From Bacilli bacterium (lineage in GTDB: Bacteria; Bacillota_I; Bacilli_A; RFN20; CAG-826): a stretch of DNA of 64,000 bases. The position numbers and the translations under genes are program-made. The stretch is from assembly GCA_017468925.1 (NCBI GenBank), contig JAFUHI010000009.1, positions 201,874-265,873 on the forward strand, read 5' to 3'. The notes under the pieces were generated by a model that ran no database searches, had not been told where the DNA came from, and saw only the letters and a program-made list of their open reading frames with translations. Positions within the stretch are counted from its first letter, which is position 1, and every line of letters starts with the position of its first letter. Shown here in pieces: positions 13,562 through 51,337 of the stretch.

Positions 13562-13955
13562 GGGCTCGTACTGGTTTTGACGGGGAAATTATCCGGCTCT
13601 GACTGCAGTGGCGTGGTGAGCTTAAACACCAAAAGGCAATAACTGCCAACAACTATTCTTTCAGGAACGCCCAGCGCGTCTCCTACGCTTGCGCTTAATT
13701 AAGTAACCTACGGGTTCCTCTCTGCGGAGATGGGCAGCTCGCTTCCACCTATTAAGTGCCTTCTAGGTGGGTCAAGCGTTAAAAAGGCAATAAGCGTATG
13801 CGGTTAACTAGCCGCCTACGACGAAAACCACTTTAGTCCCGTTCGATGGTTCTTGGTTGTGCCTTACCATCGAATCAAATATGGCATGACCTAAACTGTA
13901 GAGGTCATTGTGGGATGTTCTCCGGACAGGAGTTCGACTCTCCTCGGGTCCACCA
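13562..13955 (+). ncRNA. ssrA: tmRNA (SsrA)
   Basis: The 5' GGGCUCG pairs with the 3' CGGGUCC, followed by ACCA, and includes the G3:U pair. A T-arm is present ('AGGAG-UUCGACU-CUCCU'), as is the 5' 'UUUGACGGGG' block. The internal tag frame reads ...ANNYSFRNAQRVSYACA and ends at TAA 13696-98. Confidence 0.9.
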
Positions 13956-16530: not shown

Positions 16531-16777
16531 ACACGGAACACGCTCTTATTAAATGACATCTTTTTAAAACTAGAGGGATATTTGCATCACAATTAATTAC
16601 GCTAATATTAGAAAGATTGGGCGCCGATTTGTTCTATTTTTAATATTTGCAACAAACTTATATCGTATAGTTTCAAGCCTCGTCACCTCAGTGATTTTGT
16701 ATCAAAAGACTTCATCTACCTATCGAAAAAAACTTATTTTATATCGGTAATATTCCACTAGCTCATAAAAGAACTAG

Positions 16778-16811
16778 AATTGTGATACGAGAAATCTGTC
16801 ACAATTTTTTT
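16778..16811 (+). terminator. Orphan intrinsic terminator in a non-coding stretch
   Basis: An 8-bp stem AATTGTGA / TCACAATT with a 13-nt loop and a T7 run. It lies about 250 nt past the XRE stop codon. Confidence 0.5.
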
Positions 16812-17213
16812 GTTTTTAGGGGTAAAATAGGTAAAATCACCGGAGTTCGATACCGCACAATAAGGAATTTGCCTTATTTTTAGCCCCATTTTTTTAATTC
16901 AATAAATCAAATCATCAATTTACGGTGCCTTTCTAAAACATATAAAAAAATCAGCTCAGAAAACATTTATATTAGAACCTTTACAAATAATTGACGGGCA
17001 ACTAGGAAATGTTTTTAATGAAAATATAAATGATTTAGTTATGGTTTTTGCTTTGTATTTTATAGAAACAATGTCCAGACAAATGTCCATGCTGATGTCC
17101 ACGCATATGATAATTTGACTAAATTATAAATTTGGTTTTGGTGTCATTCTCTAGAAAAACCCTATCGTCATCTGTCAATTATAAAAATACTAACAGATAC
17201 TAATAGAAAATAA

Positions 17214-17405
17214 CTCTTGAATTTAACCAAAGAGGAGCAGAGAAAAACTTCTGACATTATTAAAGATTTAGGCTTTTCAAACAAAGAATATTCGGTATAT
17301 CGTGATAGATTGTTACAAAAGTGATTGGTTATTGCAAAGCAAAGGGGATACTTATCTCTTGCGTTGCCAAGATTTAAAGAATACATTTTTGATTATTTTA
17401 AATAA
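17214..17405 (+). pseudogene. C-terminal fragment of a paralogue of the NTPase at 18360-19412, with an in-frame TGA at 17322
   Basis: The translation '...YSVYRDRLLQK*LVIAKQRGYLSLALPRFKEYIFDYFK*' aligns with '...YQNYRSSLISKGIIEVVGYGKVDFALPRFDEFIQSISVYF*'. Confidence 0.55.
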
Positions 17406-17531
17406 TAGCAAATAATATTTTTCTATTCGCAATTGGCTTTATTTTGTTGTTTTTTCAAATTTGATATTGACAAGTACGCTTGGCAAAAACTAAGATAATA
17501 ATGACAAGTTAACTTGGCAAAGGAGAAAGAT

Positions 17532-17861
17532 ATGGATAAAGAAGAAATTTTACAAAAAGCCCAGCAAGAGAACAAAGGAGCAGACTTAGTAGACAAGCAA
17601 GCTCAAAAAGAAGGAGCTTGGATTGCCTATTTTGTTGCGGTATTAGCAATAATTTTAGTAGATGTCGTTAATGGGGTCGTTCTTCATAATGTAAATAGGG
17701 GAGCGGATTTTGCTTTATTCTCAATGGCGTTTACCGCATTTTTAATTAAATACATTAGATTAAGAAAGAAACATGAATTATTTGTGATGATCTTTTGGGG
17801 AATTGGCTCAATTGGGATGATGGTGTGGTGGATTCTTCAACTTTGTGGAGTGGCAGCCTAA
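17532..17861 (+). CDS. Small membrane protein (3 TM) paired with an XRE regulator
   Basis: AAGGAG RBS followed by an ATG at 17532. Hydrophobic helices are present, and the stop lies 1 nt before the next start. Confidence 0.6.
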   Translation: MDKEEILQKAQQENKGADLVDKQAQKEGAWIAYFVAVLAIILVDVVNGVVLHNVNRGADFALFSMAFTAFLIKYIRLRKKHELFVMIFWGIGSIGMMVWWILQLCGVAA

Positions 17862-17862
17862 T

Positions 17863-18069
17863 ATGGACGAATCATTAGTTCTTCATAATAATTTAGCAAA
17901 TATTAGAAGAGAAAAAGCTCTTTCTCAAGCTGATTTAGCAAAACTTGTCGGCGTATCAAGAAACACAATAAGTTCCATTGAAACAGGACAATATCAACCA
18001 ACCGCAAAATTGGCGCTGCTATTATGCGTGGCACTGGATAAAAAATTCGAGGAATTGTTTTATTTTTAA
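17863..18069 (+). CDS. Short XRE-family HTH regulator
   Basis: 'LSQADLAKLVGVSRNTISSIETGQYQPTAKLALLLCVAL' is an HTH_3 signature. The ATG at 17863 is preferred over the GTG at 17845. Confidence 0.8.
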   Translation: MDESLVLHNNLANIRREKALSQADLAKLVGVSRNTISSIETGQYQPTAKLALLLCVALDKKFEELFYF

Positions 18070-18243
18070 ATCGCCTTAAAAATCAAAAGACTCTATTATT
18101 TATCAAAATAGCGGTATTATTCGAGAATTAAAGGAAATTTTCTGTTTTAATTTGGCATTATTTGGGTTATTTAAATACATTCGAAAAAATACGACAAAGT
18201 GTTAAACATTTTGTCTTTTTTTATTGGTTTATGCTAGCGGCAA

Positions 18244-18331
18244 AGTTGCATAAAGTTGCATAAAAAATTTGAAGTTGCATAAAGTTGCATAAAGTTGCAT
18301 AATATTTTCAGAGTTGCATAAAGTTGCACAA
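18244..18331. repeat. Array of seven direct AGTTGCATAA decamers, arranged 2+3+2 with 9-bp AT spacers
   Basis: Copies start at 18244, 18254, 18273, 18283, 18293, 18312 and 18322; the last copy reads AGTTGCACAA. The array embeds TTGCAT(-35)/CATAAT(-10)-like hexamers. Confidence 0.9.
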
Positions 18332-31308: not shown

Positions 31309-31382
31309 ATACTTATTTTAAGCAATTAACTCATATTTGATTAATGAAAGCGTTTTACTTAATGTGGGTTATAATCTTATCC

Positions 31383-32585
31383 ATGAAGAAAATATACATT
31401 TACCCCATTAGGTCGATGATGTCTCATGGCGATATGATTTCATCGGATTCAGAGAAGCTTTTATCGTCATTATCATCTTTGCTAGATGACTATGATTTTG
31501 AATTCATAGACAATTTCAAAAAAGCGAATGAAGATGGCATCGTCCTGATACTTGTTCAAAGCGGCGGAAGCGAAGGGATATTCAAAAACGAAGTCTACCC
31601 AAAATTCAAAGGACCTTATTATTTGCTTACATACGGCTCCTCAAATTCTTTGGCGGCTTCTTTGGAAATCCTCACATTTTTGAAGCAAAACAACAAAAAG
31701 GCTGAGGTTTTGCATGGAAATGACGAATATATTGCTAAAAGAATAAAAACAATTGCAGAAAGCGAAAACGTCTATAGCGTCAGTAGACTTGGTATTATAG
31801 GAGAGCCTAGCGATTGGCTTATTTCTTCATATGTAGATAAAAAACAATGCTTAGAAACATTCGGGATTGAATTGGTGGATATACCTCAGGAAGAAGTGAT
31901 TGAGGAAATTAAAGCAGCAAAAGAGGAAAAAGATACAGCATACAACTTTGAATATGATAAAAAGGAATTGTCAAAAGCTTTAAAAATATATGCCGCGCTG
32001 AAGAAAATCGTGGAGAAATATTCTCTTTCAGGGTTCACAATCCGCTGTTTTGACATCATTAAAGAAATAAAATCATCAGCCTGCCTTGCTTTATCATTGT
32101 TTAATAAAGATGATGTGATTGCCTCATGCGAAGGCGATGTTCCAGCGATGATAACGGCCTATTTGGCGTTGAAGAAACTTAAAGTCCATTCTTTCCAATG
32201 CAACCCTCAATGGATCGACCCATCAAAAGATGAGATTTATTTCGCCCACTGCACTTTGCCTCTAGATATGGCAAAATCAATCACATTATCCACTCACTTT
32301 GAGTCTGGAATCGGGATAGGAATCCATGGAGAAATGGAAGAAGGAGATGTCACTATTTTAAAAATCGGCGCAAAACTCGATGAATTTTATTGTGAAGAAG
32401 GGGTTATAGAGAAAAACGAATACAGGAAAGATCGCTGCAGAACCCAAATAAAAATAAAAATGAATTCATCAGTTAGATATTTTCTATCAGCTTCTTTGGG
32501 AAATCACCATCAGGTCATTTACGGCCATCATAGAAAAGAGATATCAGAATATCTATCTTCCTTTGGGCTTAGGCAAGTTATTTGA
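31383..32585 (+). CDS. Putative sugar isomerase (L-fucose/L-arabinose isomerase-like); weak assignment
   Basis: About 400-aa ORF. The family call rests only on general resemblance. The start is taken at 'MKKIYIYP'. Confidence 0.35.
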   Translation: MKKIYIYPIRSMMSHGDMISSDSEKLLSSLSSLLDDYDFEFIDNFKKANEDGIVLILVQSGGSEGIFKNEVYPKFKGPYYLLTYGSSNSLAASLEILTFLKQNNKKAEVLHGNDEYIAKRIKTIAESENVYSVSRLGIIGEPSDWLISSYVDKKQCLETFGIELVDIPQEEVIEEIKAAKEEKDTAYNFEYDKKELSKALKIYAALKKIVEKYSLSGFTIRCFDIIKEIKSSACLALSLFNKDDVIASCEGDVPAMITAYLALKKLKVHSFQCNPQWIDPSKDEIYFAHCTLPLDMAKSITLSTHFESGIGIGIHGEMEEGDVTILKIGAKLDEFYCEEGVIEKNEYRKDRCRTQIKIKMNSSVRYFLSASLGNHHQVIYGHHRKEISEYLSSFGLRQVI

Positions 32586-32877
32586 TTTTCTTCATCGACT
32601 TCTCGATCTCTCTTTTGACGAATTCCGCAAAAGCATCGGGATCGATTTGTCTGAAGGCATTGCTTATCAGTTCGCTTTGGTTCATTGATTTGAAGTCGCG
32701 GCCCACTAGATAATCAATGGTGACGTTAAATAAGTCTGCTAACGCTATAAGATGCTCAATATCCGGCTCATGGATGCCATTCTCCCAATTCAATATAGTT
32801 TGAGGGCTGGTTCCAACCGCCTTGCCGACATCTGTCTGTGTCATCTCATTCATTATTCTCAATTCACGTAGTCTCAT
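32578..32877 (-). CDS. XRE-family HTH regulator
   Basis: 'MTQTDVGKAVGTSPQTILNWENGIHEPDIEHLIALADLF'. It is divergent from the candidate ncRNA promoter. Confidence 0.8.
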   Translation of the reverse strand: MRLRELRIMNEMTQTDVGKAVGTSPQTILNWENGIHEPDIEHLIALADLFNVTIDYLVGRDFKSMNQSELISNAFRQIDPDAFAEFVKREIEKSMKKIK

Positions 32878-33215
32878 ATCTAAAACAATTCAATAAAATT
32901 TGAAAATTAAAAGAAAAACCAAGTTTTCGTATATGTAACTCTAAGAAAATTCAAGTAAACCTGAAATTTAAGCGATTTTACATTGAGGTTCTTGAGCGAA
33001 TTTTTTAATTGATAAATATGAGAAAAGCCATATTACATACATATTTATTTATATATATGTAACACGCGTATACGTGTGTAATATTTGTATGCAAAACATT
33101 TTTATAAAAAAACAAAATATTTTTGTGAAAAATTTTTAAAAAATAGCAAAAAAATATCAATTATCAGTGATTATACCTTAATAAAATAAAAGAATGTAAA
33201 GATTTAAAAAAAGTG

Positions 33216-33243
33216 TTGCATACACTTGTTGTAGGTGTACAAT
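33216..33243 (+). promoter_or_regulatory. Sigma-A-type promoter of the candidate large ncRNA
   Basis: TTGCAT (33216-21), a 16-nt spacer, then TACAAT (33238-43). It is preceded by more than 150 bp of A/T tracts that resemble an UP element. Confidence 0.6.
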
Positions 33244-33249
33244 ATACCA

Positions 33250-34714
33250 ACACCCCAAAAGAGAGGGCCGCAAGGTTCGCTCACAAGGGTGCTAGCAACT
33301 GATTGCAAAATCAGCTCTGCTACGGAGAGATAGATGCCATTGGAATCTAATTCCAAAAAACGTCTTCTCTGGTTAATCGCCAGGATTGGTTCAGATAACT
33401 TGTATGCTGGATCAAAAGGAACCCTTCGCCTCTCGGTAAACCGAAAAATGGAAGAGCCTCCCAAAACTTCAAGCTCGTCTTGAAGGGGAAAGGAACGCAA
33501 AGGACGCTTGAGTTCGTCTTAAGCAAGTCATCGCCAAGACACCCTGACGACTAGTAACCTAGAAAAAAGGGAGATTCGGAAAGGCCTTGAAACAGGACAA
33601 ATCCGAAAAGCAGGAAATAGCTGACTCTACAGCTTAGCCTCAGCGATAAGCCAACAATCGCCTGGTAAACCAGAAAACATGTTGCTGATCCGATAAATTC
33701 ACAAAAGGATCGAAATTCATCTCTCGCAGATGAAACAAGAGGAATTCTCCCTCTTCCGGTAGACCGGAAAAACGAAGAAACGAAGAGGATGACAACAACG
33801 CGTCTGAAACTTCGCAAATTCTTGTAGCAATTCAAGGATGAGGAAAAGCCAATCCTCTGGGTGCACCCAAAAACATCGGAAGCCTTGATTCTCTCCATCT
33901 TGCGAAAGATGGCTGAAATCAAAAGCGACTCCATCAAGTGAAAACTTGACGAAGCAACGAACTCCTAATCGCTGTCTGGTAGAACCAGAAAAACAAAAAG
34001 GGATATATCCGTAAGGATATGATGGGAGAAAAACCCATGGCAACGAAGATGGGCCAACGGTAAACCAAAAATCATCTCTTCTTAGCCTAGAAGCGGTATA
34101 AAGGCCGATTAACTTCGCTAAGATAAGCTTTGCATCCTCTAGATGTGGATCTGTGAAAACCTCATTCACCGGTGAAACCGTCAACAAAGAGGATACGAAT
34201 CTCTCGAATGATTCACTTCATTAGGGAAATCCGAAAACTTCTAGGAATTCATAACTAGAAGGTGCCGACAAAGGCTAGGCGTGCGGTAAACCGCTGGAAA
34301 TGCCTTAACCTCACATCTTCGGATGATGAGTAGTTGATCGAGGACATTCATTGTCTTCGAAGGAAGTCATTCCACCCTACAATTCGTAAAGTTGGAATGT
34401 GACATTAGAAACACGCTGAAGGGAGACGTAAGCGACATCTGATGCCGAGACTTGTCAAGAGTGATCCGAAACAAGCCTAGGAAGATAAGAGTTCTTCTCG
34501 CCAGTAAACTGGAGAAACAAAAACTTGTTCTGAACGACTTCCTCGCAAGGAGAGAAGCCAGTAAGAACTGATCAGAGCAATCTGAGTGGTTAATTGGAAC
34601 TTCCCACACGGTAAACCGTAAATAAAACATTCTCGTCGAATTTGGAGCTCATATAGACGTTAAAACGAAAAGCCGAGCGACACCTCGCAGTAATGCGAGG
34701 CGTTTTCTTTTTTT
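33250..34714 (+). ncRNA. Candidate giant structured non-coding RNA (~1.46 kb), family unknown
   Basis: Bounded by a promoter and a terminator, with no + strand ORF of 60 aa or more. It is GC-enriched relative to its flanks. It contains many 5-7-bp hairpins with GNRA/UUCG loops and ten GGUAAACC-type hairpin repeats. Confidence 0.6.
34683..34714 (+). terminator. Intrinsic terminator ending the candidate ncRNA
   Basis: CCTCGCA-GTAA-TGCGAGG followed by TTTTCTTTTTTT. Confidence 0.85.
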
Positions 34715-34715
34715 G

Positions 34716-34724
34716 TGATATAAT
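34716..34724 (+). promoter_or_regulatory. Extended -10 element (TGaTATAAT) ending 7 nt before the ATG of the next gene
   Basis: TG at 34716-17 and TATAAT at 34719-24. No Shine-Dalgarno sequence precedes the ATG at 34732. Confidence 0.4.
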
Positions 34725-34731
34725 CTTCAAT

Positions 34732-35754
34732 ATGAAACCTAAGCAATTTGATTATGAGCCGGAATATGCGACAATCGCGATGAAACAAGATGGTTTTTAT
34801 GTATGGGATTGCTCAACCATCAAGGTAGGAAATGAATACCATATGTTTTCTTCTCATTGGCCTTTTAAATTGGGCTTTGGATGGAATTGGCTATTCCATA
34901 GTGAAATCTGCCATTTCGTATCTTCATCACCAGAAGGTCCATTTGTGTTTAAGAACGTGGTATTTTCTAGAAGAGATAAGCATTATTTTGATGGAATGAA
35001 CACCCATAATACTTGCATCAAAGAATATAAAGGAAAGTTCTATTTATACTATATGGGCTGCACTTATCCAGGGCCTATTCCTCAGAATTTAAGTGAGATT
35101 GACGAGTATTTTGCAAGGGAAACGTGGAATCGCAAAAGAATTGGTGTCGCTGTTGCGGATGATATAAATGGTGAATTCGTTAGGCTAGATTCGCCTATTT
35201 TGGAACCAAGAGATTGCTCCCATTGGGATTGCACATGCACTACAAATCCTAGCGTTATCATAAAGCCAGATGGTACAACATATATGATTTATAAATCGAG
35301 GACTATGGCGACATCCCAATTGAAGTTAGGAATCGCTATTGCGCCTAGCCCCACTGGACCATTTTCTCGTTTGTGCGAAGGACCAATACTCGATATGGAT
35401 ATGGAAGATCCATTCATTTGGTACGATGAAAAAAGAAATAAATTCTGTTTGATAGCAAAAGACAATGAATTGAATAATAACGGCATTAACAAAGAATATG
35501 GCAGCGCTTTTTACGCCGAAAGCGATGATTGCATCAATTTTGAGGTGGCAGAATTCCCCAAAGTCTATTCAAGGACGATAAGATTTAAAGATGGTGCTAC
35601 TAAAACATTATGCAATCTAGAAAGACCATCAGTGTTGTTTGATGAAAATGGCGAGCCGTCATATATTTATTGCGCATCCGGCGATGGAGAAGGCCCATAC
35701 TGTTTTGTTGGGCCTACATATATTGTCGGAATAAAGCTGAAAAGGAGAAAATAG
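34732..35754 (+). CDS. Predicted glycoside hydrolase, beta-propeller type (GH43-like); family not verified
   Basis: About 340 aa. The blocks 'VWDCSTIKVGNEYHMFSS' and 'MEDPFIWYDEKRNKFCLIAKD' resemble GH43/32-clan blades. Confidence 0.5.
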   Translation: MKPKQFDYEPEYATIAMKQDGFYVWDCSTIKVGNEYHMFSSHWPFKLGFGWNWLFHSEICHFVSSSPEGPFVFKNVVFSRRDKHYFDGMNTHNTCIKEYKGKFYLYYMGCTYPGPIPQNLSEIDEYFARETWNRKRIGVAVADDINGEFVRLDSPILEPRDCSHWDCTCTTNPSVIIKPDGTTYMIYKSRTMATSQLKLGIAIAPSPTGPFSRLCEGPILDMDMEDPFIWYDEKRNKFCLIAKDNELNNNGINKEYGSAFYAESDDCINFEVAEFPKVYSRTIRFKDGATKTLCNLERPSVLFDENGEPSYIYCASGDGEGPYCFVGPTYIVGIKLKRRK

Positions 35755-42976: not shown

Positions 42977-43859
42977 GTCAACAATTATTATCGCCGCCCT
43001 ATCTCTGGTATTGTTAAGCGGCTGCAAAGAAACAAGCGAGCTCTATAACGCTTACGAATATATGACTCCTTATTTTGAGCGGAATTATTACAAGAATGAT
43101 GTTTTTAGTGACGCAACGATAAAGGAAGCATTCGAACTTTCCTCCGATAAATACTTCAACGGTGACTTTGTCACAGATTTCAAAGTGAACTCAAGCATTA
43201 CTAGAGTTGGTGCGAAAACCAAATACCCCGAGATGTTCCAATATAAAAACGGAGAAACAACATCAACGTTAGATGGTTTCGGCTATACGATGAATCATGC
43301 TAACGAAGATGAGAAATACATAGGAAATGATTTTGGAAGAACCAAATGCATGGATAAACAAGATAGTTCTTTCCAAAGAGGTATCTTGAGCAAATTGTAT
43401 GATGGGCAAATGTTCTGCTATAACTACCATAGCGCTGCTTTAGTGGAAACATCCGCGTCTGGCTTTGGCCACAGATTCTCTAAGAAATTAATTGAAGGTG
43501 AATATTTCTTGCTCTCCATGAGAGGTGGTTCCACTAGGGGCGAAGGCAGAATTACATCCATTGATTTGAGTGTGACCTTCTATAAAGAAACATCAAATGG
43601 CTTTGAAGGAACGAAAGTTACGCTGAATGAAGTTTATGAAAGAACCGACAGTGGCGGAGAAAGCTGTTCCTTTGTCGGTTTTAAGTTCTCCGATGCTTTG
43701 CCAAATTTCGATATCAAAGATATATGTGGCTATAGAATAGGCTTCACCAACCTTCACGATGGAACAAATAATGATTCCGTTGAGCCTGAAAATGAGTCCG
43801 AGCATTATTGGGGACTGCTCATTTATGAACTGATGTTCGTTAATGCTTCTTGGCGTTAA
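42963..43859 (+). CDS. Lipoprotein, function unknown
   Basis: Lipobox 'LVLLSGC|KETS'. Confidence 0.7.
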   Translation: MKKNKSTIIIAALSLVLLSGCKETSELYNAYEYMTPYFERNYYKNDVFSDATIKEAFELSSDKYFNGDFVTDFKVNSSITRVGAKTKYPEMFQYKNGETTSTLDGFGYTMNHANEDEKYIGNDFGRTKCMDKQDSSFQRGILSKLYDGQMFCYNYHSAALVETSASGFGHRFSKKLIEGEYFLLSMRGGSTRGEGRITSIDLSVTFYKETSNGFEGTKVTLNEVYERTDSGGESCSFVGFKFSDALPNFDIKDICGYRIGFTNLHDGTNNDSVEPENESEHYWGLLIYELMFVNASWR

Positions 43860-44760
43860 TGTATTTGCGTATATCTAGCCATTCGCCTTGAATGAAGTCG
43901 GCTTTGTCGTCGTCGAATATTAATGTGCCTTTCGCTGGAGTGAACGTCATTTCACTGAAATATATCTTTCCACCAACATCATATAGATCCACTCTAACGA
44001 AAGGAAATGGCTTCGCTAAATCCTCCGCAATTTTAACCATTTCATCAAAATTTGAAGGTTTTACAGGGATTTCATCACTTTTATTCCATCCATTGAACTG
44101 TGATTCATCGAATGGAGTCCAATCGATATAAAGCTGGTCATAACGGATATCTTTCCCTCTGCCAGTCACCGTGTATAGGTTTCTCGCAATCCCATTAAAT
44201 AAATGTATCTTGTATTCGATCGGAAGAGAATCATCGCTGCCGATATACTCTTCAATGATAATCTGTGGCTTAATTGGAGAATAATGCCTCTCAACGGTTT
44301 TCTTCCCATAATCAGTCCTGAGCCATCTGTCGAAATTCTTTTTTGCCGCTTTTAAATCTAACTCATTTTTGTTTTTCACAATTAAATTGAATCCTGAAGC
44401 GTGAGAGCATTTCATCACGAATCTATTCGGAAGAGAAGAAAAATCAATATCATCAAAATGATCGTAAACACCAAGGCATTTTATTAGACAGCCTTCATAT
44501 CCTTTTTCTTTTACATAATCTCTCACACCGACTCTTCCGGCACATCTAATCACATCTTTATCCTTTGGATAAACAAATAATCTAAGATATTGTAGTTTTT
44601 CCGTATATCTGACTGGGTTTTTCAGATTCAGTTTATGATGGGTTATGTATTTATATTGGGCTTTTACGTAACCGATTGGAGAAAAGAATTTGACAAAAGG
44701 CCTAACGATAGATGCCACAAATCTTTTGGCTTTATTTTCCTTCAATCTTGGCTGCAACAT
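43840..44760 (-). CDS. ATP-grasp fold amidoligase, TupA-like
   Basis: 'FVMKCSHASGFNLIV', 'PFPFVRVDLYDVGGKIYFSEMTFTPAKG' and 'YKIHLFNG' match the TupA-like ATP-grasp family as I recall it. Confidence 0.75.
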   Translation of the reverse strand: MLQPRLKENKAKRFVASIVRPFVKFFSPIGYVKAQYKYITHHKLNLKNPVRYTEKLQYLRLFVYPKDKDVIRCAGRVGVRDYVKEKGYEGCLIKCLGVYDHFDDIDFSSLPNRFVMKCSHASGFNLIVKNKNELDLKAAKKNFDRWLRTDYGKKTVERHYSPIKPQIIIEEYIGSDDSLPIEYKIHLFNGIARNLYTVTGRGKDIRYDQLYIDWTPFDESQFNGWNKSDEIPVKPSNFDEMVKIAEDLAKPFPFVRVDLYDVGGKIYFSEMTFTPAKGTLIFDDDKADFIQGEWLDIRKYINAKKH

Positions 44761-50257: not shown

Positions 50258-51337
50258 ATGGAAGAAGAAAAGAAGAACGTTGAGGAAAATGAAAGCGACT
50301 TCGCCGATGAAGTTGCCCCGCTAGAAGAGCAAGAATCCACTTTGCCGCCACCAGAAGAAACGAAAGAAGAAGAAAAACCAGAAGAAAAAAACTGGGATAG
50401 AGAAGGAGAGGCCCCAGAAGTTAAATCCGCAGGGGAAATAACCGATGAGAGGCTCAAATTAATTGAATCACGTCGAGCGGACTTCCATAAAAAATATAAA
50501 AAAACCAACATATTCAGATGGGTTGTGTCGTTATCTGCTTTGGCTTTGATTGTTCTTGGATATGTCATTCCGACAACCGTACCTCCAATGGCAGGTTCAA
50601 CCTGGGGGATATATATTACCTTAGGTGTCCTTATTCTCGCAGTTTTGTGCATTGCCATTTATAGCTTTGTCTCAAGAAGATGGATCAATAAGCATATGAA
50701 GCAGTATTTTGCCGATTATTACGCCAGTGCGAATTCATATGTTTACGAAGGCGACGAAGAAGGCGCGAAAGGCGATGTTGATACAAAACTCGAACCTTTG
50801 ACTTTGAAAGAAGCGAAGACCTATGAGGATATCTATAAAATCGGCAGCAGAGACACGCTTAAGTTCTCCATAAACGGCAAAAACGCATTGGTTAGCGACT
50901 GCGCTGCTCAAATTTCAATCGGCAAACAACTAAAAACAGTTTTCGTCGGAAAGTTATTTGTCATTGATAATGAATACAAAGGCGACCAAATATTGCTTTA
51001 TATCAAAGGCTATAGCAGAGGTTTACCCCCAACAGCCTTAAGCGGAAAAGAAGAGATTTTAAACGATGGAAGAATGGCCGCTTTTGGAAATAAGACGGAA
51101 TTTGCAAAGATATTTAGCGACAAGACTTTAAAAACTCTTCTCGATGAATTTGACACAAACAAAATATTGGTGGATGTGACCATTTCAATCGTCGAAGGCA
51201 AAACCTATTATTTCATGGGGTATGATGACTCCGCGATGGTGTTACCACTAGAAAAGCCGCTTGTGCTTGCTCCACTTGATGAAATCAAAAAGAACTATGC
51301 TTCTATAAAGAAAGTCGATTCATTGCTCAACTTATAA
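50258..51337 (+). CDS. Membrane protein with an acidic N-terminus, function unknown
   Basis: The start is taken at 'MEEEKKNVEEN'. Two central TM helices. Confidence 0.55.
   Translation: MEEEKKNVEENESDFADEVAPLEEQESTLPPPEETKEEEKPEEKNWDREGEAPEVKSAGEITDERLKLIESRRADFHKKYKKTNIFRWVVSLSALALIVLGYVIPTTVPPMAGSTWGIYITLGVLILAVLCIAIYSFVSRRWINKHMKQYFADYYASANSYVYEGDEEGAKGDVDTKLEPLTLKEAKTYEDIYKIGSRDTLKFSINGKNALVSDCAAQISIGKQLKTVFVGKLFVIDNEYKGDQILLYIKGYSRGLPPTALSGKEEILNDGRMAAFGNKTEFAKIFSDKTLKTLLDEFDTNKILVDVTISIVEGKTYYFMGYDDSAMVLPLEKPLVLAPLDEIKKNYASIKKVDSLLNL

Follow-up and report, generated by a model that had tools for sequence, protein, structure and literature searches.

Bacterial non-coding RNAs (ncRNAs) in which one molecule has many copies of a short motif, set in hairpins or single-stranded, include CsrB, CsrC, RsmX-Y-Z and CrcZ, which titrate one RNA-binding protein and in which the motif is conserved and the rest is variable. 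Repeated arrays with A-rich sites are also found in the antitoxin RNAs of type III toxin-antitoxin systems (ToxI, AntiQ, CptI), where each repeat binds one protein. A further type comprises OLE, GOLLD and ROOL, very large and structured RNAs of Firmicutes-type or uncultured genomes, with GNRA-capped hairpins and A-rich linkers (PMC12286853). The locus analysed here bears some likeness to each of these. It lies in a window of 64,000 nucleotides (nt), which is the whole stretch of DNA that was analysed, from contig JAFUHI010000009.1 of an uncultured, gut-type Bacilli bacterium (assembly GCA_017468925.1), and consists of a small hairpin, GGUARACC in its core and followed by a run of A, which recurs about every 106 nt. 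We propose that these hairpins would be the unit markers of a previously undescribed, lineage-restricted structured ncRNA of ~1.46 kb, transcribed from the + strand from ~33250 to an intrinsic terminator at 34683-34712.

The candidate RNA fills the non-coding stretch of ~1.46 kb (~33250-34712, +) left between a helix-turn-helix (HTH) gene (32578-32877, − strand) and a GH43-like gene whose ATG is at 34732. The features that delimit it are:

33216..33243, + strand: promoter-like element presumed from TTGCAT, a 16-nt spacer and TACAAT, read by eye, with 8 of 12 consensus positions
33250..34712, + strand: candidate structured ncRNA, a 5' leader of ~180 nt and then ~12 units of ~106 nt
34683..34712, + strand: intrinsic terminator, CCUCGCA-GUAA-UGCGAGG and then CGUUUUCUUUUUUU

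Transcription and the exact ends of the RNA, including a putative start at ~33250, are what we infer from sequence. The terminator is strong and canonical and was found on the + strand only. The promoter-like element scores under the threshold of the promoter scan and so is unlisted by it, and its -10 hexamer differs among strains (TACAAT or TAAAAT). It is overlapped by a minus-strand hairpin followed by U7 (~33203-33256, -12.4 kcal/mol), which could be a weak terminator against antisense read-through. In composition, the GC content is 43-48% across 33250-34700 versus 30-39% in the flanks, and A is well above T, the AT skew of the RNA region being +0.16 to +0.37.

The RNA region has no + strand open reading frames (ORFs) of at least 50 amino acids (aa), nor long ORFs under alternative, stop-reassigning genetic codes. 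Long ORFs are present on the minus strand, because this strand is poor in A, and some gene callers call them as genes. Strain substitutions fall in them without third-position bias, as they do without codon-position bias in the RNA at large, and 2-nt indels between strains break them; in a 49-aa + strand ORF at 33334, all four strain changes are non-synonymous (worked out by hand). Searches of protein databases with translations of these spurious ORFs, made to catch mis-called homologues, returned nothing usable. A protein-coding gene or pseudogene is thus ruled out by the absence of codon-position bias, the 2-nt indels and the lack of a relevant translated match.

Its slow evolution along the whole 1.46 kb is what argues most strongly that the region has a function. 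At least 24 contigs, from independent samples, encode the exact HTH protein, and eight loci, from at least seven samples, span the RNA and provide five distinct alleles; given this recurrence in at least seven independent samples, the locus is real and not an assembly artefact. Samples in which it is present include SRR12529324, SRR14556334, SRR30827665 and ERZ28593758. With respect to the allele in the window, the RNA alleles diverge by 0.9-1.5%, against 6-9% at neighbouring neutral-like sites. In 1470 nt of RNA there are 16 differences, whereas the upstream spacer (32878-33244, 6.0-7.6% divergence among strains) has 22 within 367 nt, and the GH43-like gene differs between strains at 31 of 341 third codon positions (~9%) versus 2 of 682 first and second positions. 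From end to end, then, the 1.46-kb region changes five to eight times more slowly than the neutral-like sites beside it. The upstream spacer is itself very AT-rich and hypervariable, with several indels, and the variation extends into the imperfect palindrome ACACGCGTATACGTGTGT at 33062-33079.

The octamer GGTAAACC occurs six times in the window, both strands considered: five times on the + strand, at 33435, 33664, 34059, 34285 and 34610, and once on the − strand, at 51020. The expectation for both strands, from dinucleotide shuffles of the window in full, is 0.92, and none of 100 shuffles reached six. The extended motif GGTARACCNRAAA, in which the octamer is joined to its A-run, has four matches, all in the locus, with 0.02 expected. 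A looser, context-free pattern (RGTRRAMCY) displays no locus specificity, so that the signal of the motif resides in the exact core plus its context. The five exact octamers of the original prediction are there (33435-34617, +), and the remaining 62 kb contain a single further one. Its ten hairpin copies fared less evenly: pairing probabilities, from a partition function of the full 1,468-nt RNA, support copies 1, 2, 3, 4, 7, 8 and 10 (0.72-1.0 for their stem pairs) and leave copies 5, 6 and 9 weak. Seven copies (1-5, 7 and 8) had correct coordinates, whereas those of copy 6 (34169-34180) and copy 9 (34559-34570) were out by one base and those of copy 10 (acGGTAAACCgt), which is at 34608-34619 and not at 34618-34629, by ten. 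Two copies of the same shape, at 33551-33562 and 33858-33869, were absent from that list. The A-run 3' of the hairpin was confirmed for most copies; the pyrimidine-rich 5' flank that had been described is present in ~5-6 of 10 and missing from the rest. Numbered as modules, with stem-pair probabilities (p) and scores in bits, the elements are:

33433..33449, + strand: module 1, UCGG-UAAA-CCGA + AAAAU; p 0.72-0.78; 27.8 bits
33551..33568, + strand: module 2 (new), CUAG-UAAC-CUAG + AAAAAA, within CCCU/AGGG; p 0.97-0.99; 24.6 bits
33662..33679, + strand: module 3 (copy 2), CUGG-UAAA-CCAG + AAAACA; p 0.86; 28.9 bits
33756..33773, + strand: module 4 (copy 3), CCGG-UAGA-CCGG + AAAAAC; p 0.99; 26.4 bits
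33858..33874, + strand: module 5 (new), UGGG-UGCA-CCCA + AAAAAC; 22.4 bits; also found by the repeat finder
33976..33994, + strand: module 6 (copy 4), CUGG-UAGAA-CCAG + AAAAAC; p 0.99; 24.4 bits
34059..34072, + strand: module 7 (copy 5), GG-UAAA-CC + AAAAAU; weak, flanks unpaired; p 0.64 for the two G-C pairs; 19.6 bits
34169..34187, + strand: module 8 (copy 6), CCGG-UGAAA-CCG + UCAACAA; degenerate, missed by the covariance model, fills a ~106-nt slot; folds in a shifted register, CGGU-GAA-ACCG
34283..34299, + strand: module 9 (copy 7), GCGG-UAAA-CCGC + UGGAA, stacked on GGCGU/AUGCC; p 0.96; 22.7 bits
34501..34518, + strand: module 11 (copy 8), CCAG-UAAA-CUGG + AGAAAC; p 0.99; 23.2 bits
34559..34570, + strand: copy 9, CAG-UAAGAA-CUG; doubtful, off-period, p 0, missed by the covariance model
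34608..34625, + strand: module 12 (copy 10), ACGG-UAAA-CCGU + AAAUAA; p 0.76-0.84; 27.1 bits

The hairpin is an RNA-type element, specific to one strand, and the variation in its outer stem is compensatory. That the closing pairs covary between copies had already been proposed, and the claim is sustained by the alignment of ten copies, by shuffles and by slid registers. In that alignment, 95% of the cells of the 4-bp stem are paired and there are 10 double (compensatory) changes, with the caveat that its copies were chosen partly for their palindromic character. CG, UA, AU and GC all occur at the two outermost positions of the stem, the third pair is GC in eight copies and AU in two, and the pair adjoining the loop is GC in 10 of 10. 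None of 500 shuffles reached the observed pairing, which falls to 7-48% when the partner is slid by 1-3 columns. Among the five exact octamers, a set free of that bias, four are flanked by two further complementary pairs, which are of four different kinds. The module was also made into a covariance model (25 nt: 5 nt, stem, loop, stem, 8 nt), which, run unfiltered on both strands of the window, gave 10 matches at E < 0.02, all on the + strand within 33428-34627, and its best match elsewhere in the 64 kb has 16 bits (E 0.15). The expectation that the motif would be confined to the locus, rather than dispersed like a repetitive extragenic palindrome (REP), thus holds within the window.

Could the repeats be something other than an RNA feature? 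They might be palindromes bound as DNA, a REP-like or miniature inverted-repeat transposable element (MITE)-like repeat, a degenerate CRISPR-like array or a decayed or unrecognised coding region, all of which we hold to be extremely improbable. As DNA, GGT-AA-ACC forms an imperfect palindrome, a DNA-binding HTH protein is encoded next to the RNA, and the long minus-strand ORFs are called by gene callers. However, the variable flanks keep their complementarity and the A-tract is strand-asymmetric, and elsewhere in the window the motif is represented by one stray octamer, on the other strand (51020), so that a dispersed repeat of the REP/bacterial interspersed mosaic element or MITE-like kind was rejected for these 64 kb. 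A CRISPR array was also rejected: instead of repeats of 24-40 nt and spacers of 25-40 nt, the shared element has 12-25 nt and a spacing of ~106 nt, and neither Tandem Repeats Finder nor the repeat finder reports any. The coding variant is opposed by the strain changes already described in the minus-strand ORFs and in the 49-aa ORF, and tblastn with the proteins that accompany homologues of the HTH protein finds nothing.

The ~106-nt periodicity, absent from the original prediction, is the most informative feature of the locus. The modules, in the frame of the covariance model, start at 33428, 33546, 33657, 33751, 33853, 33971, 34052, 34164, 34278, 34496 and 34603, with gaps of 118, 111, 94, 102, 118, 81, 112, 114, 218 and 107 nt, whose coefficient of variation is 0.32 versus 0.74 under random placement (P = 0.0014). 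A period of 106 nt fits best (Rayleigh R = 0.89), and only 0.05% of random placements do as well when any period of 60-200 is allowed (P ~5e-4). The RNA can therefore be described as a leader of ~180 nt followed by ~12 units of ~106 nt, each of which has, in the predicted fold, the module (hairpin and A-tract) first and then two or three other hairpins. Aligned with one another, the units show no similarity past the 25-nt module, and Tandem Repeats Finder detects no array in the RNA; thus, only the module is retained. The remaining ~80 nt differ between units and yet are constrained between strains. A second type of repeated hairpin is also present in the RNA, with three 7-bp stems capped by YUCGY pentaloops (CUCGU, UUCGU and CUCGC) at 33467-33485, 33506-33524 and 33716-33734, the first two 39 nt apart and with AG(C/T)TCGTCTT in common.

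Two explanations of this regularity do without a shared binding role. According to one of them, the hairpin is the slowest-decaying remnant of an ancient tandem duplication of a ~106-nt unit and has no shared present role. The periodicity would agree with this, as would the short extended similarities that the repeat finder reports between some copies, up to 17-19 nt. Nevertheless, the rest of the units has diverged past alignment while five octamers stay identical and the stems compensate, a pattern that needs selection on the module itself, and we regard such a relic as quite unlikely. According to the other, the hairpins are processing signals, at or beside which an endoribonuclease would cut a precursor in the A-tract, giving about a dozen RNAs of ~106 nt. 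The regular spacing and the A-tracts, predicted single-stranded directly 3' of stable small hairpins, speak for it, and nucleases of type III toxin-antitoxin systems are known to cleave A-rich sites in repeated RNAs. This is unlikely as well, since the units share only the module, so that cleavage would yield 12 RNAs unrelated to one another, neither terminators nor promoters were found inside the RNA region, and no nuclease or toxin gene adjoins it.

The predicted fold agrees with a structured RNA. Six overlapping segments of 290 nt have folding z-scores of -2.1 to -3.6 with respect to dinucleotide shuffles, the values of four coding controls being -2.3, +1.7, +0.3 and +0.6. There are ~48 predicted hairpin loops, of which UAAA is the commonest (seven occurrences); 57% of the positions predicted to be unpaired are A, and several modules are predicted to lie in a like local setting (outer helix, internal loop, hairpin and A-rich 3' strand). 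Seven hairpins with GNRA or UNCG loops and stems of at least 5 bp are on the + strand and one is on the − strand; shuffles have 0.33 on average, and none of 3,000 reaches seven (P < 1/3000).

These strand signals bear on whether the functional transcript might instead be that of the minus strand, in which the hairpins would read GGUUUACC and be preceded by U-tracts. That strand has a slightly more stable full-length fold (-487.7 versus -444.5 kcal/mol), the weak hairpin with U7 at ~33203-33256, a TTGCTT-17-TTATAT element near 34740 (by eye) and four local strain substitutions that are wobble-compatible on it only. The lower energy, however, is expected from the U-richness of the minus strand and the z-scores do not favour it (means of -3.0 on the + strand and -2.75 on the minus strand), nine local substitutions are wobble-compatible on the + strand only, and the canonical terminator and the long-stem GNRA/UNCG hairpins point the same way. 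A minus-strand transcript is accordingly very improbable.

What would the repeated element do? Each unit would open with a 4-bp stem whose two loop-proximal pairs are nearly always G-C, a U-A-R-A tetraloop and a 3' single-stranded A-tract (RAAAAAC-like). Constraint falls on the sequence of the UARA loop, of the two G-C pairs next to it and of the A-tract, but on pairing alone in the lower stem, amid an otherwise variable unit, which suggests that the elements may be equivalent recognition sites, read in a base-specific manner. A base-specific loop and upper stem on a lower stem of which only the shape matters is the usual reading mode of hairpin-binding proteins, such as the MS2 and PP7 coat proteins, lambda N (on boxB) and SLBP. 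Likewise, in the packaging-signal hairpins of single-stranded RNA viruses and the A-repeats of Xist, degenerate stem-loops with a common loop and upper stem and a semi-regular spacing recruit many copies of one protein. These are analogies only, from the contexts of viral genomes and a eukaryotic long non-coding RNA, and there is no capsid or partner gene at our locus. The RNA might then act as a multivalent platform on which about a dozen copies of one partner would be bound or organised, this partner being most likely an RNA-binding protein, possibly oligomeric, and less likely another RNA surface. An RNA with ~12 docking sites, all equivalent and all for a single partner that is probably a protein, is the explanation we tentatively put first, with somewhat less than even confidence.

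The alternative with most in its favour is that the hairpin and its A-tract form a tertiary module (A-minor or loop-helix docking), which would serve folding, or the formation of an RNA-only particle like OLE, ROOL or GOLLD, with no protein reader. The similar purifying selection on the whole length agrees with it, as do the ~48 predicted hairpins, many with GNRA or UNCG caps, the A-rich unpaired positions, the negative z-scores throughout and the local setting shared by several modules. RNA-only homo-oligomers of large bacterial RNAs are also documented (PMC12286853). Nonetheless, some of the evidence does not sit well with structural building blocks: of the two loop-proximal pairs, one is G-C in 8 copies out of 10 and the other in all 10, the + strand has no complementary UUUA or GGUUUACC segments for loop-loop pairing, and GNRA loops do not come one per unit, so that a simple loop-receptor scheme does not fit. 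Tertiary motifs and loop-helix contacts normally leave the adjacent stem pairs free to covary. We consider this alternative possible rather than probable, and favour the reading of the hairpins as docking sites over that of an intrinsic tertiary or quaternary building block.

Several observations weigh against the docking-site reading. The whole 1.46 kb is about equally constrained, the modules being no better conserved than the spacers, which exceeds what a simple sponge needs. In the predicted helices about 10 strain substitutions keep pairing (Watson-Crick to G-U) and about 10 break it; C33976U keeps a pair of module 6 as U-G, and C33764A, in one strain allele, breaks a stem pair of module 4. 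No double compensatory changes were found among the five strain alleles, which differ by only ~34 substitutions. No homologue was found outside one species-level lineage (96-100% identity), and there is therefore no phylogenetic covariation. Copies 5, 6 and 9 are poor hairpins, and one slot of the period (~34391, slot 10) has no clear copy, as deduced from the single double gap. Finally, a candidate partner gene was not found near the RNA, whose neighbours are sugar-metabolism genes and the HTH regulator. The uniform constraint and the lack of a nearby partner gene argue against a simple sponge in particular, and keep the structural model alive. Going further, one may conjecture a new class of giant ncRNA, solenoid-like, with ~12 three-hairpin units that each display the GGUARACC hairpin and its A-tract and template a multi-subunit assembly (~12 proteins or a self-assembling RNA particle), and which at ~1.46 kb would be larger than any described non-ribosomal structured bacterial RNA; we offer this as doubtful, though possible.

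Compared with the known systems, the analogy with CsrB/RsmZ-type sponges that the original prediction drew survives only at the level of a multivalent RNA, although in its presumed mode of action the RNA would be closest to such sponges or scaffolds (CsrB, RsmZ, CrcZ). The repeated motif is GGUARACC with an A-tract instead of ANGGA or CA-rich, and a CsrA-type sponge was rejected, as GGA appears in only one of the 48 predicted loops. The candidate RNA has 1.46 kb versus 0.1-0.4 kb in the CsrB/Rsm/CrcZ sponges (4-10 times larger), it is constrained over its whole length, and its sites are ~106 nt apart, with constrained and structured spacers between them, unlike CsrB-type sites, which are packed every 10-30 nt. 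Antitoxin RNAs of the ToxI type consist of near-identical tandem repeats of 34-45 nt directly upstream of the toxin gene, whereas here the ~106-nt units cannot be aligned and a GH43-like gene, with no ToxN/AbiQ-type nuclease, lies downstream; that assignment is thus ruled out.

With OLE, GOLLD and ROOL the resemblance is one of size class and ornateness, and by analogy with them a multimeric or multivalent behaviour of the RNA is plausible. Large ornate ncRNAs are recognised by a length of several hundred nt or more, non-coding status, selection and a dense conserved secondary structure; within its one species the candidate shows the length, the non-coding status and the purifying selection, together with a strand-specific enrichment of tetraloops. 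The candidate differs in that it gives no match to the covariance models of those families even at E <= 10, is about twice the size of GOLLD, is built of periodic ~106-nt units with one repeated hairpin, which is not a described feature of the three, and has been seen in a single species-level lineage.

Searches for relatives covered several collections. Rfam 15, whose families include OLE, GOLLD, ROOL, HEARO, raiA, CsrB/Rsm, group II intron domains and riboswitches, gives for the whole window, at the gathering threshold, only the transfer-messenger RNA (tmRNA) at 13562-13955 and no family that matches the RNA; for 32800-34800, at E <= 10, there are only five chance-level eukaryotic or viral matches, all of at most 22 bits. 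A blastn search of the RNA (word size 11) against phage and plasmid collections found no match. Scans of viral contigs with a triple-octamer pattern retrieved only Gly-X-Y-type or other coding repeats. A two-module scan (GGTARACCNRAAA, a gap of 61-121, and GGTARACCNRAAA again) retrieved 91 genome, at least 120 metagenome and 7 viral loci, and the matches listed are regular tandem or coding repeats; the 7 viral loci were checked by motif count only. Neither in the pattern-scan loci of genomes and metagenomes (E <= 10) nor in the triple-octamer viral loci (E <= 1) did nhmmer detect a match to the RNA. The two-module scan of genome contigs did not retrieve the source species, and since pattern scans need two exact 13-mers, their negative outcome is weak evidence of absence, suggestive and not proven.

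Among the regular arrays that contain the same 13-mer, one from Rossellomorea vietnamensis (L043; NZ_VTEI01000002.1, 6762-7817) is a 52-nt tandem repeat with 20 copies at 86% identity, non-coding-looking, whose unit holds GGTAAACC and an A-run. It was rejected as a relative because it shares the octamer and the A-run but has no palindromic flanks, and is unrelated. Others have periods of 110 nt (L081) or 134-137 nt (L190), and a further one is L127.

The genes at both sides of the RNA provide the genomic context. Upstream and divergent from it stands the HTH gene:

32578..32877, − strand: XRE/HTH_3 regulator gene, 99 aa, divergent from the RNA

Homologues of this regulator reach at most 53% identity over at least 92% of its length, or 63-66% over the HTH portion alone. 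They are encoded as divergent partners of operons with a D12 methyltransferase, a 128-aa protein and GmrSD, of type I restriction-modification operons, or of unrelated genes, and given the first two settings they look like controller (C-protein-like) regulators. At the loci retrieved, no copy of the RNA was seen beside these homologues in other genomes; the RNA gene occupies here the position that a defence operon takes there. The RNA as a decayed copy of such an operon was rejected, since tblastn with the methyltransferase, 128-aa and GmrSD proteins is negative. It is possible that the XRE/HTH_3 protein regulates the promoter of the RNA, an association that is not conserved elsewhere.

Downstream, the GH43-like hydrolase gene (ATG at 34732) has its own promoter, with a TGaTATAAT that ends 8 nt before the ATG (34716-34734) and no Shine-Dalgarno. 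Other genes of the window also lack a Shine-Dalgarno, e.g., those at 43840-44760 and 32578-32877; the closeness of TATAAT to the ATG, together with several genes of this kind, suggests that leaderless mRNAs are frequent in this organism. Homologues of the GH43-like protein fall from 99% to 63% identity and are clostridial. As the closest non-self relatives of the flanking proteins are 53% and 63% identical, there is no sister species on record.

On the far side of the HTH gene, a gene for a 413-aa protein (31344-32585) overlaps it convergently by 8 nt at its 3' end; the protein has no Pfam match, and among NCBIfam models those of sulfoquinovose/sugar isomerases resemble it weakly (E 1.5e-14, far below the cut-off). 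Elsewhere in the window, the tmRNA gene at 13562-13955 (Rfam, 112 bits) encodes the tag peptide ANNYSFRNAQRVSYACA. A second long stretch with no ORFs of at least 120 aa is found at 16531-18323 (1.8 kb, GC 0.31, ORFs of at most 115 aa only) and is unlike the RNA locus, being AT-rich and with no A/T skew.

If transcribed as predicted, the RNA would be among the largest structured bacterial ncRNAs outside the ribosome, in a lineage of Bacilli that is uncultured and has no close relatives in current databases. Its base-specific hairpin and A-tract, recurring with a ~106-nt period in a sequence that is otherwise unrelated from unit to unit but constrained, set it apart from compact sponges such as CsrB and RsmZ as well as from the ornate RNAs, and its period leads one to expect a defined stoichiometry, of ~12. 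Beyond this locus, strain-level variation in metagenomes can demonstrate selection on an orphan RNA that has no homologues.

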